Assembly (NCBI GenBank): GCA_016188355.1
Contig: JACPHY010000016.1
Location: forward strand, 2,345 to 66,344
Length of the DNA stretch: 64,000 nucleotides
Direction: 5' to 3'
From: Candidatus Uhrbacteria bacterium
GTDB taxonomy: Bacteria; Patescibacteriota; Patescibacteriia; JACPHY01
Each line of letters begins with the position of its first letter. Within the stretch, counting starts at the first letter, position 1. Below, one piece after another: positions 736-56,711 of the stretch. The notes beneath the pieces are model-generated. The model did no database searches, had not been told where the DNA came from, and saw only the letters and a list, made by a program, of their open reading frames with translations. Position numbers and translations under genes: made by a program.

Positions 736-835
736 GCGCTCGATGCACTGACTGGGAAATGCGCCGAGAGCCACAAGTCATTGTGGGCAAACCTTCCGGT
801 TTTCCCACAGACCCTTTCCCTCCAGCCGGTCAGCA

Positions 836-945: not shown

Positions 946-1626
946 TTAGAGCTGCACTTTCACGCTCGGACCCATGGTGGTGGTGAGGAAGGCGGACTGG
1001 ATGTACGTACCCTTGGCGGATGGGGGTTTGGCACGGCGGATCGCGTCAAGGAATGTGGTGGCGTTCTCGAGAATTTTTTCCGCTCCCCATGATGCCTTTC
1101 CAATAATTTGATGGACATTCGAAGTGGCATCATTCTTGAAGGCGACGCGACCGCCTTTGAGTTCACGAATCGCCTCTGCGATTTTTGGGGTGACGGTGTC
1201 ATTTTTTGGTGAGGGCATGAGACCGCGCGGACCCAAGATTTTTGCGATGGTCGCCAGGTCCTTCATGAGGTCCGGTGTGGCCACCGCAACATCGAATTCG
1301 ATGTGTTCCGTGGTGCGAATCTGATCGATGAGCTCCTTTCCGCCCACGAGATCTGCTCCAGCGGCGCGTGCGTCTGCCTCACGATCGGCGGGCACGAATG
1401 CGACGACGCGCTTCGATTTCCCGGTGCCGTGGGGGAGCGAGACGGTGCCGCGGACCTGCTGCTCTCCCTTTTTGGGGTCGATGCCCAGGCGCACGTGTAC
1501 TTCTACGGATGCATCAAACCGTGCTGGGGAGGTCGTCACGACGAGTGCCGCGGCGTCTGCGAGTGCGTAGGATTTCTTGGAATCGACGAGTGCTGCGCGT
1601 TTCTGATATCGCTTACCGTGTGCCAT
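946..1626 (-). CDS. rplA: 50S ribosomal protein L1
   Basis: 226-aa ORF with full-length L1-like sequence (MAHGKRYQK...GPRGLMPSPK). Confidence 0.95.
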   Translation of the reverse strand: MAHGKRYQKRAALVDSKKSYALADAAALVVTTSPARFDASVEVHVRLGIDPKKGEQQVRGTVSLPHGTGKSKRVVAFVPADREADARAAGADLVGGKELIDQIRTTEHIEFDVAVATPDLMKDLATIAKILGPRGLMPSPKNDTVTPKIAEAIRELKGGRVAFKNDATSNVHQIIGKASWGAEKILENATTFLDAIRRAKPPSAKGTYIQSAFLTTTMGPSVKVQL

Positions 1627-17789: not shown

Positions 17790-17950
17790 TGCTGCATGAT
17801 CGTTCTTGTGCGGATCAGGGAACGGTGAGCGCTCGGGCGGATCGCGGAAGAAATGTTCGTGTGCGGCGGTAGGACTGGTGGATGGGCCATTGACAGGGAA
17901 ACGGGAGTTCGGTACGCTACCGATGTGCATCCGCGCGTACGGCGTGTTTC

Positions 17951-18125
17951 GGACCTATCGCCGAATGCCATTCCTGCTGCGAACGGCGATATTCGGCCGG
18001 AATCACCTCACCGGATATTGGCGTACCTTCCCAGTACGCCGGCAATCTGGATTCGGCGATTCCGTCTCGAATCTCGCCGTTCTCGCGACGGAAGCGCATT
18101 CGGCGATAGGTCCTTTTTGTTTTCC
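17951..18125 (+). ncRNA. Structured element A: 18-bp perfect outer stem enclosing a second 8-bp stem and three hairpins, ending in a U-tract, immediately upstream of the L25 gene
   Basis: ggacctatcgccgaatgc (17951-17968) pairs exactly with gcattcggcgataggtcc (18096-18113), followed by tttttgttttcc. Inner pairs gaacggcg/cgccgttc, gcgtac/gtacgc and cggcga/tcgccg. Confidence 0.4.
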
Positions 18126-22076: not shown

Positions 22077-22181
22077 AAGGAATGCGCGGCAGGGATCCGA
22101 TGAGGGAGGAGGGGCCTCGTACGCTATCGTACCGCACACCGCGAGCCTTTGGAGGCTCGCGGTGTGCGGTACGCCGTCAAA

Positions 22182-22560: not shown

Positions 22561-22578
22561 GTGCAGTGGGAAGATAGG

Positions 22579-22609
22579 AAAACCCCCACCCTTGAAGGGT
22601 GGGGGTTTT
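22579..22609 (-). terminator. Intrinsic terminator of the large secreted-protein gene (13-bp stem aaaacccccaccc/gggtgggggtttt)
   Basis: Perfect 13-bp stem with ttgaa loop; U-run follows on the minus strand directly after the gene stop at 22624. Confidence 0.55.
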
Positions 22610-22623
22610 CCGGTTGCTGCTCG

Positions 22624-54376: not shown

Positions 54377-54448
54377 GGATGCACTCATGCGCGATTCCTT
54401 CGTTCTTTGGTGCTCGAGCTCGCTCTCCTTGTTCTTCAATTTTTCTAT

Positions 54449-55216
54449 ATGTGGCCCGATTATCGAAAGCAGCCGTTGTTTGCTGGACTTTTTGCGTTGG
54501 TACTACTCGGAGCGTTTGCGTGGGAGCTTGCTGCAGCAACCGAGCACGCGCGGAATGCTGCTGCGGTGCGAAAACCAACTCCACCCATTCGTGAGCTCAC
54601 CGTTTCCGGTACGGGTAAGGTACGCGGTATTCCCGATACCGCGGTGATTACTGCCGGCATGACGGTGCAGGGAACCGAGGTGCGTATCGTGCAGTCGGAA
54701 GTGAACAAGAAGACGACTGCGCTGATTGCGGCGGTAAAGCGTGCGGGAGTTGCGGCAGAGGATATTCAAACCGCTCAATTTTCGATTACCCCGCGTTACG
54801 TGTACGGCGAGCGCGTCGCGCCTTCTATTAGTGGATACGAAGCATCGCAGTCGGTTGAAGTGCGCATCCGAAATCTCGAAAAGGTGAACACGGTGCTTGA
54901 TGCAATGGGTGATGCGGGTGCCACGAATATTGGTAACCTGCAATTTATCATTGATAATCCACAGGGGCTGCAGGCGGAGGCGCGGGAGCGGGCAATTGCG
55001 GATGCGCGCGCAAAGGCGGGAACGATCTCGGGTCAGCTGCGCGTGCGATTGGTTCGTGCGGTAGGCTTTCAGGAGGGCGGCGGCTATGTTCCTCCCATGA
55101 TGCCGCTCATGCTCCGAGGTGACATGGGCGGCGGTGAGGCGGTGCCCGCGCCGACCGTGGAAAAGGGGAGCCAAGATATCGTGTCGAATGTGTCGGTGAC
55201 GTTTGAAATTGAATAA
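54449..55216 (+). CDS. SIMPL-domain (DUF541/YggE-like) periplasmic protein
   Basis: Signal-like MWPDYRKQPLFAGLFALVLLGAFA, then TVSGTGKVRGIPDTA and a typical SIMPL core. Confidence 0.7.
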   Translation: MWPDYRKQPLFAGLFALVLLGAFAWELAAATEHARNAAAVRKPTPPIRELTVSGTGKVRGIPDTAVITAGMTVQGTEVRIVQSEVNKKTTALIAAVKRAGVAAEDIQTAQFSITPRYVYGERVAPSISGYEASQSVEVRIRNLEKVNTVLDAMGDAGATNIGNLQFIIDNPQGLQAEARERAIADARAKAGTISGQLRVRLVRAVGFQEGGGYVPPMMPLMLRGDMGGGEAVPAPTVEKGSQDIVSNVSVTFEIE

Positions 55217-55393
55217 CGAGACCTCTGCGAAAATCCAGATTCGCGCCAGGAACGCGCTGTTCGGCTGCGCTGCGTTCCTCGACCACTCACGAGATCCGCT
55301 GGATATCGCTCGGGTCTGCGTCGCGCAGCTCGCTCGAACATCACGTCCCTGGCGCGAAAGCGATTTTTGTAGAGGTCTCTAACGTTGTTTTCC
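55217..55393 (+). ncRNA. Structured element B: 19-bp imperfect outer stem, nested 9-bp stem and inner hairpins, U-rich tail ending 8 nt before the eno start
   Basis: gagacctctgcgaaaatc (55217-55234) pairs with gatttttgtagaggtctct (55362-55380). Inner cgcgccagg/cctggcgcg and aggaacgc/gcgttcct. Same architecture as element A. Confidence 0.4.
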
Positions 55394-55400
55394 CGCGTCT

Positions 55401-56711
55401 ATGTCGTCCATTGCGTCCGTGCGTGCATGGGAAATTCTGGATTCTCGCGGTAATCCGACCGTTCGTGCAGAAGTGCGCACGGATTCCGGACATGTAGGTG
55501 TGGCGGCGGTGCCTTCCGGCGCGTCGACCGGCGTGCATGAGGCACTCGAATTGCGTGATGGCGATGCAAAGCGGTACGGCGGAAAGGGGGTGCGGAAGGC
55601 CGTGGCCAATGTGAATGGTCCCATCGCGCGAGCGGTGGTTGGCCATGCGGTCCATGCGCAGGGGGAACTGGATCAGATCATGCGCGAATTGGACGGGACA
55701 CCCAATAAATCAACGCTGGGCGCAAACGCCGTGCTCGCGGTGTCCCTCGCCGCCGCTCGGGCTGCGGCGCTTGCTGCCGGACTCCCGTTGTATCGGTATC
55801 TCCGGGGGGTAGCGCAAATTGCGTCCGATGAGTTTCGGCTTCCCGTGCCCATGATGAATATCCTGAATGGCGGGCGACATGCGGATTCCGGACTTTCGAT
55901 CCAGGAATTCATGGTAATTCCGAAGCATCGAAAATTTTCCGAACGATTGCGCATGGGGACCGAGGTGTTCCACGTGCTCCACGACATTCTCCGGAAGCGT
56001 GATTTTGCGACGACCGTCGGCGATGAGGGAGGATTTGCACCTCGGTTGGGCGATAACGAGCGCGCGCTGCGCGTGATCCTGGAGGCAATTCGAAAAGCGG
56101 GCTATACGCCGGGGCGTGACATCGCGCTCGGGCTCGATGTTGCCGCGTCGGAATTCTACACTACTCCCGAAGCGGATGCATCGTCGTCGAACGGCAGCGG
56201 AAAAGGAACGCGTGGGGGACGGTACTTTTTTAAGGATGCGGCTACGCCGTGGACCCCGGTGCAGATGATGGCGTGCATGGAGCGTTGGGCGAGGAAGTAT
56301 CCACTCATTTCGATTGAGGATCCGCTCGCAGAGGATGATTGGGATCATTGGACGCAACTCACCTCACGCATCGGGAAGCGGGTGCAGTTGGTCGGCGATG
56401 ATCTTTTCGTGACCAATGTCGAGCGCCTCGAACGGGGTATCGCGGAGCACGTAGGAAATGCGATCTTGATCAAGGTCAATCAGATTGGTTCGCTCTCGGA
56501 GACGCTCGCCGCGATTACGCGCGCCCGCGCAGCGAAGTATCGGGTCATTATCTCGCATCGTTCCGGAGAGACCGCGGATACGTTCATTGCGGATCTCGCC
56601 GTCGCGGTCAATGCAGAGTACATCAAGACGGGGTCACTTTCGCGGAGTGAACGCGTGGAGAAATACAATCGACTACTCGAAATTGAATCCGAGGTTCGTG
56701 CGGATCGATAG
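55401..56711 (+). CDS. eno: Enolase
   Basis: [21 protein letters not shown] canonical enolase N-terminus, full length 436 aa. Confidence 0.95.

Follow-up and report, generated by a model that had tools for sequence, protein, structure and literature searches.

A non-coding hairpin upstream of the enolase gene of a Candidatus Uhrbacteria bacterium is very likely a MITE-type insertion belonging to a large and apparently undescribed repeat family

Bacterial miniature inverted-repeat transposable elements (MITEs) are defined as elements of less than 200 bp that carry terminal inverted repeats and flanking direct repeats, encode no transposase, and form a long and stable stem-loop (PMC3184786). 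In Anabaena and Nostoc, the Nezha MITEs (Zhou et al., 2008, cited through PMC3184786) combine a length of ~130-170 bp with terminal repeats, direct repeats, and a very stable hairpin, as does the element described here, and their mobility was deduced by the argument that is also applied below, in which related genomes with and without the element at the orthologous site are compared (PMC3184786). Here, a 64-kb window of a Candidatus Uhrbacteria genome (64,000 nt; positions 2,345 to 66,344 of the forward strand of contig JACPHY010000016.1, assembly GCA_016188355.1) is examined with a focus on element B, a non-coding, MITE-type, rod-like hairpin of 162 bp at positions 55218-55379 (+ strand) directly upstream of the enolase gene (eno), and on element A, a probable divergent relative of B in the same window. 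The extent of B is given by its fold, by a family profile, by the ends of assembly contigs, and by a gap in a sister genome. In all likelihood, B is a copy of a non-autonomous MITE-type transposable element with 18-bp terminal repeats and a 4-bp target duplication: the terminal repeats, the duplication, the dispersed relatives, and the empty site together make B fit the published definition of a bacterial MITE.

The sites that correspond to both elements are empty in a sister Candidatus Uhrbacteria genome (GCA_016206015.1). Its eno locus (L215) encodes an enolase that is 80% identical and has the same gene order, from the radical SAM gene through YceG, and the stop codon of the SIMPL-domain gene that precedes eno is followed by 25 nt and then by the eno ATG; element B is not there. 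When the window is aligned with this locus, a clean gap of ~165 nt appears at B, with the coding flanks conserved. In more distant relatives (72% identical), PGK is followed by eno after an 11-nt spacer, and a B-type element is absent upstream of eno in L215 as well as in L216-L219. The second site lies upstream of the gene for L25, a ribosomal protein, which is 78% identical in the sister genome and is preceded there by the conserved block CCATTGACAGGG...TACGCTACCGATGTGCATCCGCGCGT and then GGTGTTTTTTTGTTTC (locus L220) as an uninterrupted leader. At the same place, the leader in the window reads GCGTGTTTC, then element A, then TTTTTGTTTTCC. Since both orthologous sites are empty in the sister genome, A and B are insertions that took place in the lineage of the window, and the filled-versus-empty contrast expected of a MITE is present for B (L215) and for A (L220) alike.

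Direct reading of the sequence places the tetranucleotide TAAC on both sides of B (55214-55217 and 55380-55383), a 4-bp duplication of which the left copy contains the SIMPL stop codon (TAA, 55214-55216). B begins one base past that stop codon and ends 21 nt ahead of the eno ATG. It is inserted at a TAAC that overlaps the SIMPL stop, within what was formerly a SIMPL-eno spacer of 18-25 nt, and the pre-insertion junction would have read GAATAAC joined directly to GTTGTTTTCC.

The ends of B are also visible in the way in which the locus assembles. In the Logan assemblies SRR12113419, SRR12113422, and SRR12113385, which come from one study and are 99.98-100% identical to the window, all contigs that reach B from the left stop at 55247 and all that reach it from the right begin at 55350. 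With k = 31, which we take to be the value used for these assemblies, the two positions lie exactly k-1 = 30 nt inside 55218 and 55379, respectively, as expected if the sequence of B also occurs elsewhere in the sample. The repeat boundaries obtained from the contig breaks coincide with the hairpin boundaries to the base. An inversion of the inner segment between 11-bp repeats was considered as a source of these breaks and rejected, as it predicts breaks at 55250/55348, whereas the observed 55247/55350 fit the repeat model. Every retrieved assembly of this population has the insertion, with no empty-site contig among three contigs with SIMPL and two with eno.

Relatives of B were sought in metagenomes with the pattern GAGACCYCTRCRAAA-N(120-150)-AGAGGTCTC, and the figures for the family hold among the matches listed. 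The scan returned at least 120 matching stretches, compared to a chance expectation of ~1 (a rough estimate), and the 105 matches listed represent 93 distinct copies, which measure 144-174 nt and most often 161 nt. All 93 copies have the termini GAGACCTCTGCRAAAGTC / GACTTTYGCAGAGGTCTC, such that the 18-mer of B is common to 92 other distinct copies, and terminal positions 16-18 are conserved even though the search pattern left them free. Of the 93 copies, 50 are flanked by perfect direct repeats that measure at least 4 bp (5 bp in 30 and 4 bp in 17), compared to ~1.5 expected from shuffled flanks, and these repeats vary between copies, which indicates a duplicated target rather than a fixed site. 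The contexts of the copies are unrelated and include the spaces between convergent, divergent, and co-directional genes; relative to neighboring genes, nine copies have the same and five the opposite orientation according to crude gene calls, with no significant bias. Several contigs hold 2-4 copies, and cases of one copy inserted within another also occur. There is, further, a target preference: 9 of 48 insertions with clear duplications lie in a hairpin loop (at least 7 pairs) versus 1.07 expected, an example being CCATCC-TGAAG-GGATGG, and some insertions lie within other palindromic repeats.

The interiors of the 93 copies fall into many subfamilies and are overall too heterogeneous to be aligned over their full length. 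B aligns over its full length with 22 copies from several of these subfamilies, with 51-64% identity to the eight closest, and shares with the 22 aligned copies two asymmetric internal motifs, TTCGGCTGCG in the 5' half (55260-55269) and CTCGCTCGAA in the 3' half (55329-55338; both on the + strand and placed from alignments). The asymmetry of the 3' motif relative to the 5' motif gives the element an orientation. A profile hidden Markov model (HMM) built from the 22 copies, with B left out, was searched against the whole window and matched B at 55218-55379 on the + strand over profile positions 1-162 (E = 6.8e-14). Judged by its sequence, B is a full-length member of the family, beyond the shared ends. 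The names of neighboring genes assign locus L154, which belongs to the sub-lineage of B, to Candidatus Uhrbacteria and locus L141 to Candidatus Peregrinibacteria, and contigs with family copies range from 21 to 73% G+C. A rod with the termini of B (GAGACCCCTGCAAAATC...TTTTTCAGAGGTCTC) also occurs in Candidatus Uhrbacteria nzgw337 (L022 17925-18052). It is one of the similar rods that came to light in loci of the Candidate Phyla Radiation through an enolase scan of genome collections; the best match of that scan, at just 63% identity, was of no help for close synteny.

The family is large and apparently undescribed; MITEs as such are a known kind of object, and this is probably a new family among them. 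Rfam, plasmid and phage records, and the literature searched did not reveal it, and queries of the literature on the terminal-repeat string, the inner GTCATTGCGAG core, MITEs of Patescibacteria, and Nezha/ISNpu3 returned nothing specific. A scan of the window against Rfam gave nothing at gathering score and only sub-threshold plant microRNA hairpins, while permissive Rfam scans of B and 14 family loci gave only generic long-hairpin matches.

Several further observations concern the copies and their surroundings. A second widespread class of palindromes, with the cores GTCATTGCGAG...CTCGCAATGAC or GTCATCCTGAGC...GCTCAGGATGAC (L089 1179-1400, L168 627-754, L024 20704-20840, and L010 1858-1987), occurs on its own, inside GAGACC elements as their interior (cluster 1), or as a hairpin that hosts a GAGACC element in its loop. 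Nested or abutting copies at L183 5926-6358, L152 6323-6707, L100 8961-9343, and L207 4065-4447 consist of an element within an element, or of solo ends 220 nt from a complete copy, and reflect repeated insertion into existing copies. Inverted instead of direct flanks are seen at L152 6536-6716 and L190 10454-10612 (compare L128 and L166), for example ACCCTTTCA, the element, and TGAAAGGGT, as would be expected from recombination or an assembly join between two oppositely oriented copies. In locus L106 (753-1254), a copy at 831-991 lies between tRNA genes at 753-824 (-) and 1181-1254 (+), and a second copy lies 1.7 kb off in the opposite orientation, each with its own 4-bp duplication.

The fold of B is that of a single rod. 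Its outer arms, the 18-nt terminal inverted repeats GAGACCTCTGCGAAAATC (5', 55218-55235) and GATTTTTGTAGAGGTCTC (3', 55362-55379), both listed on the + strand and identified by an inverted-repeat call, the family listing, and column frequencies, are complementary at 16 of 18 positions (89%); reverse-complemented, the 3' repeat departs from the consensus at position 10 (G in 98% of collected repeats) and at position 16. The perfect stem cgcgccagg/cctggcgcg forms part of the inner arms (55240-55274 and 55324-55358). Alone (162 nt), B folds at -90.4 kcal/mol, and with flanks it reaches -94.5 kcal/mol (z = -7.06), a value equaled by none of 200 shuffles; B thus has the long and stable stem-loop of a MITE (-90.4 kcal/mol, z = -7). 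The complementary strand folds as well as, or better than, the sense strand, so the fold gives no pointer to a sense RNA. Three of the reading frames of B contain stop codons and the other three are open throughout, and B is too short for a transposase gene, its size being below the 200 bp that bounds a MITE.

A preliminary description of this locus had pointed to nested stems upstream of eno and to a likeness with element A in length and nesting. All of the described features are present, and A and B do mirror one another (163 versus 162 nt, same rod shape). The loose similarity of the 5' arms that had been remarked on does not carry the same weight: the motif matches five times in comparison to 4.45 expected, four of the matches being the arms of A and B, and it is by itself not significant.

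Element A (163 bp, 17951-18113, + strand) has the termini GGACCTATCGCCGAATGC...GCATTCGGCGATAGGTCC and is recognized by its fold, a profile match, and the empty sister site. It folds at -99.7 kcal/mol (z = -8.9) in the same shape as B, and in a sliding fold and a BLAST of the window against its own reverse complement, no other palindrome in the 64 kb comes near A and B in strength, and they are the only long rods. The profile from the 22 copies without B has as its next match, after B itself, the interior of A, which it matches collinearly (profile positions 19-145 to 17969-18096, E = 0.0017), and that interior carries ATTCGGC, in the place of the TTCGGCTGCG motif, and TCGAATCT at the places corresponding to the motifs of the B lineage. 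The termini of A are unlike the family consensus, and a terminal-repeat profile, biased by the way in which copies were collected, did not detect A; a fuzzy search for the termini of A in ~2.2 Mb recovered A alone and no second A-type copy. On these sequence similarities, A is probably a distant relative of the B family. Right-hand Logan contigs begin at 18075 in A, which indicates that at least 30 nt of its 3' arm also occur elsewhere. Variant rods at L142 1695-1817 (GGCCTCTGAAAAA..., 123 nt) and L073 8125-8285 (GAGCCTGCTACCAAAT..., 161 nt) are related and have different ends, and suggest a wider superfamily that possibly includes element A.

Upstream of A, a promoter-like TTGACA (17890-17895) and TACGCT (17913-17918) are separated by 17 nt and recur nearly base for base in the sister genome; A lies downstream of this block and hence in the L25 leader. 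Its perfect 18-bp basal stem is followed directly by TTTTTGTTTT, which would supply the run of U of a terminator, and A together with TTTTTGTTTT would make a plausible terminator structure within that leader. In the sister genome, contig JACQSL010000012.1 (GCA_016206015.1; L220 1-110) opens with sequence for the C-terminus of a transposase of the integrase-core type (...YNTERPHWGNGGKTP...), which sits a short way before the L25 promoter block, at a place occupied by other genes in the window; a contig break at this transposase is as expected for a repeated insertion sequence, and no link to the GAGACC elements was seen. The window additionally contains two short perfect hairpins, at 22128-22173 (21-bp stem) and 22577-22611 (17-bp stem, flanked by GGAAAA/TTTTCC), that resemble ordinary, possibly bidirectional, terminators and contrast in size with A and B.

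The genes around B form a glycolytic cluster in the order GAPDH, Pyr_redox, DUF2238, PGK, SIMPL, B, enolase, and iPGM. The SIMPL-domain gene (54410-55216, +, 268-269 aa) is supported by the list of open reading frames (ORFs), by a gene call, and by a match to Pfam PF04402 on identical Logan contigs; the enolase gene (55401-56711, +, ATG at 55401) is supported by Enolase_N and Enolase_C on identical contigs and by its NCBI name, phosphopyruvate hydratase. Exact look-ups of the SIMPL ORF and of a 113-aa ORF upstream of A gave no match. Between the right TAAC and eno lies the remainder of the native SIMPL-eno spacer (55384-55400, +), as identified from the 25-nt spacer of the sister genome, which has no element; it includes the T-rich TTGTTTTCC (55385-55393). 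By that comparison, the T-rich tract 3' of B is pre-existing spacer and lies outside the element. The TTGTTTTCC string, which follows both elements, has three occurrences in the window, one of them intragenic, and was not borne out as a general upstream motif. No promoter-like sites were called in or after B, and no terminator-like sites were called by the scan within 54900-55600. The 25-nt spacing of SIMPL and eno in the sister genome is too short to hold a promoter, and since B and the sequence that follows it have no predicted promoter either, eno is very probably transcribed through B. Long palindromes that end no more than ~10 nt from the eno start were also observed in other lineages (L012 9881-9991, L061 4241-4398, and L070 9783-9990); they comprise a hairpin of 111 nt from another Uhrbacteria genome, with TTTTTCT after it, and two GA/TC-rich hairpins of 158-208 nt from Gemmatimonadetes genomes. 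It should be noted that these come from loci fetched centered on eno and may reflect sampling bias.

As a MITE, B would have been moved by a transposase supplied in trans that recognizes the 18-bp termini and inserts the element into a target cut with a stagger of 4-5 bp, with roughly a fifth of the copies with clear duplications (9/48) landing in the loops of short hairpins. B would since be carried passively and transcribed within the operon mRNA as an imperfect hairpin of ~80 bp ending 21 nt before the eno start, where cleavage or altered processing, stability, or polarity would be possible; A would be a more distant relative that inserted into the L25 leader. Nothing in our analysis points to selection of the B hairpin for regulation.

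Several observations weigh against this interpretation. First, no autonomous element or transposase with the family termini was found in ~2.2 Mb of loci, in viral contigs, or in plasmids, and mobilization in trans by a transposase is what we infer. Solo terminal repeats and long-range pairs proved to be further MITE copies, nested copies, or neighbors of ordinary genes (LysR, PRPP synthetase, DUF2851, Amt, CDC48, cyclophilin, and 5S rRNA), and two ORFs without Pfam match that adjoin copies are unrelated to each other; the viral contigs gave six matches and no autonomous element, and in the plasmids, B had no match and a cluster-1 copy matched only in a fragment of its inner core. Second, the window contains a single copy of the strict family, the copy number in the source genome being deduced from the contig breaks, and independent assemblies cover B only outside 55248-55349. 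Third, two properties would be surprising in a plain cut-and-paste MITE. In the B lineage, double compensatory changes are seen at 28 of 44 consensus pairs, with hardly any one-sided steps from G-C to G-U, and arm-to-arm transition mismatches in the orientation of B (+ strand of the window) number 109 of the A:C type versus 45 of the G:U type, counts that ignore shared ancestry among the copies. With the copies placed in the orientation of B, the reverse complement is the better-folding strand in all 23, by a mean of 18 kcal/mol; the largest other cluster has no wobble bias (102 versus 105). This suggests that self-folding of a particular strand takes place at some point, which plain cut-and-paste transposition does not require. 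Lastly, B may affect the expression of eno or may later have been co-opted.

Such co-option would add to, rather than replace, a MITE origin: B would have arrived as a MITE and since have become an RNase III or stability site that uncouples the two halves of the glycolytic operon. The presence of the insertion in all retrieved assemblies of the population would agree with this, as would the effects of MITEs such as Correia and ERIC (enterobacterial repetitive intergenic consensus) on transcripts (PMC3184786). We consider it unlikely, since the insertion is limited to one lineage and fixation in one sampled population is equally expected from neutral drift.

Alternatively, the GAGACCTCTGCRAAAGTC elements could be hairpin mobile elements that spread via a single-stranded intermediate, DNA or RNA, of one strand by means of another enzyme. 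Room for this is left by a 160-nt rod that is kept by compensatory changes while its interior turns over, by the one-strand wobble mismatches in the B lineage and the frequent landing in hairpin loops, and by the failure to find a transposase and the occurrence of the same 18-nt ends on contigs of 21-73% G+C, including those of streamlined genomes of the Candidate Phyla Radiation (CPR); we regard this as quite unlikely. A further proposal, in which the hairpin is mobilized as single-stranded DNA by an HUH enzyme, either as a repetitive extragenic palindromic (REP) sequence or REP doublet forming hairpins (REPIN) with a REP-associated tyrosine transposase (RAYT) or as a derivative of IS200/IS605, and not as a DDE-type MITE, would draw on the rod with its compensatory changes, the strand-specific wobble bias, and the tendency to sit in or near other hairpins. 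It is highly improbable, in that such families lack terminal repeats of this type and target duplications, whereas 50 of 93 copies here have variable duplications of 4-5 bp, and REP units measure 20-40 nt (PMC3184786) in comparison to ~160 nt for the present elements.

That B is a large intrinsic terminator or attenuator separating SIMPL and eno units is likewise very doubtful. TTGTTTT does occur within ~8 nt of the B hairpin, and A is directly followed by the terminator-like TTTTTGTTTT. The first 8 nt after the stem of B are, however, TAACGTTG, with three T only, and no terminator is called; eno starts 21 nt on without a promoter-like site, and the SIMPL and eno genes, 25 nt apart in the sister genome, do not mark the end of a transcription unit. 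With no promoter before eno, efficient termination at B would silence eno and iPGM. Moreover, the T-rich tract is older than the insertion, and ordinary terminator-like hairpins in the window have stems of 17-21 bp. The U-tail of the preliminary description is present as the T-rich TTGTTTTCC, and it is weak, with UAACGUUG directly after the stem of B and no terminator-like site called.

The original proposal, that A and B are conserved cis-regulatory leaders or a processed small RNA (sRNA) family placed before highly expressed genes, is extremely unlikely. In its favor are the great stability of the hairpin, its position immediately ahead of eno and of the L25 gene, the lack of space for a promoter downstream of B, and the compensatory changes that maintain the hairpin family-wide. 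On the other side, both orthologous sister sites are empty and eno in other relatives has no such element upstream, copies stand in convergent, divergent, and co-directional settings without orientation bias, terminal repeats and target duplications are marks of transposons, no Rfam match reaches the gathering score, and the wobble bias of the B lineage favors the strand that is antisense to eno. The empty sister sites, the terminal repeats, the target duplications, and the unrelated contexts contradict a leader or sRNA family. What does stand from that proposal is that B belongs to a family, and a large one (at least 120 stretches), to which A is probably related through its interior (E = 0.0017); and the observation that there is no room for a promoter between B and eno, which placed B in the eno leader, is supported by the 25-nt sister spacer to the extent that transcription through B is very probable, while the regulatory role drawn from it is not. 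An integron attC site was also considered and rejected, as attC core sites have the form RYYYAAC...GTTRRRY and lie in a cassette array beside an integrase, whereas B ends in GAGACC...GGTCTC and has housekeeping glycolytic genes as neighbors.

For annotation, a MITE origin means that the two most striking structured-RNA candidates of the window are transposon copies and should not be modeled as riboregulators of eno or L25. It further implies that a MITE family has been active in CPR bacteria, with their small and streamlined genomes, and has copies in a core glycolytic operon and in a ribosomal-protein leader, where an 80-bp hairpin is tolerated by, or may modulate, downstream expression. While the elements are an ordinary kind of object, the conserved ends, the preference for hairpin loops, the strand-biased hairpin, and the question of the transposase make the family a reasonable subject for a focused study of mobile elements.

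Among systems that resemble the family, IS621, IS1397, and ISKpn1 insert preferentially into palindromic extragenic repeats. REP sequences serve as targets for insertion sequences, with IS621 mentioned in this connection (PMC3184786). The likeness of these hairpin-targeting insertion sequences to the present family is in target choice only: they belong to the IS3 and IS110 families, are autonomous, and have ends unlike those described here. Correia elements of Neisseria and ERIC elements of Enterobacteriaceae are closer, being intergenic MITEs of ~105-160 bp that are co-transcribed, form long hairpins, and influence expression (PMC3184786). They differ in their TA duplications, their termini, and their narrow host ranges. 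Correia additionally carries promoters and a site for integration host factor (IHF), in contrast to B, which has no promoter-like site. Correia hairpins are processed by RNase III. Nezha, according to PMC3184786, shares its terminal repeats with ISNpu3, whereas no such partner was found for the present family; the hosts of Nezha are cyanobacteria rather than CPR bacteria, and no sequence relationship between the two was found. In Geobacter uraniireducens, the Chunjie MITEs (Chen et al., 2008, cited through the same source) have 21-bp terminal repeats and form rod hairpins of -98 to -130 kcal/mol, compared to -90 to -100 kcal/mol for A and B (PMC3184786). Chunjie elements differ in being A+T-rich, in their length of 178-235 bp, and in their 9-bp duplications (PMC3184786), while the elements described here measure 144-174 bp and duplicate 4-5 bp of their target.

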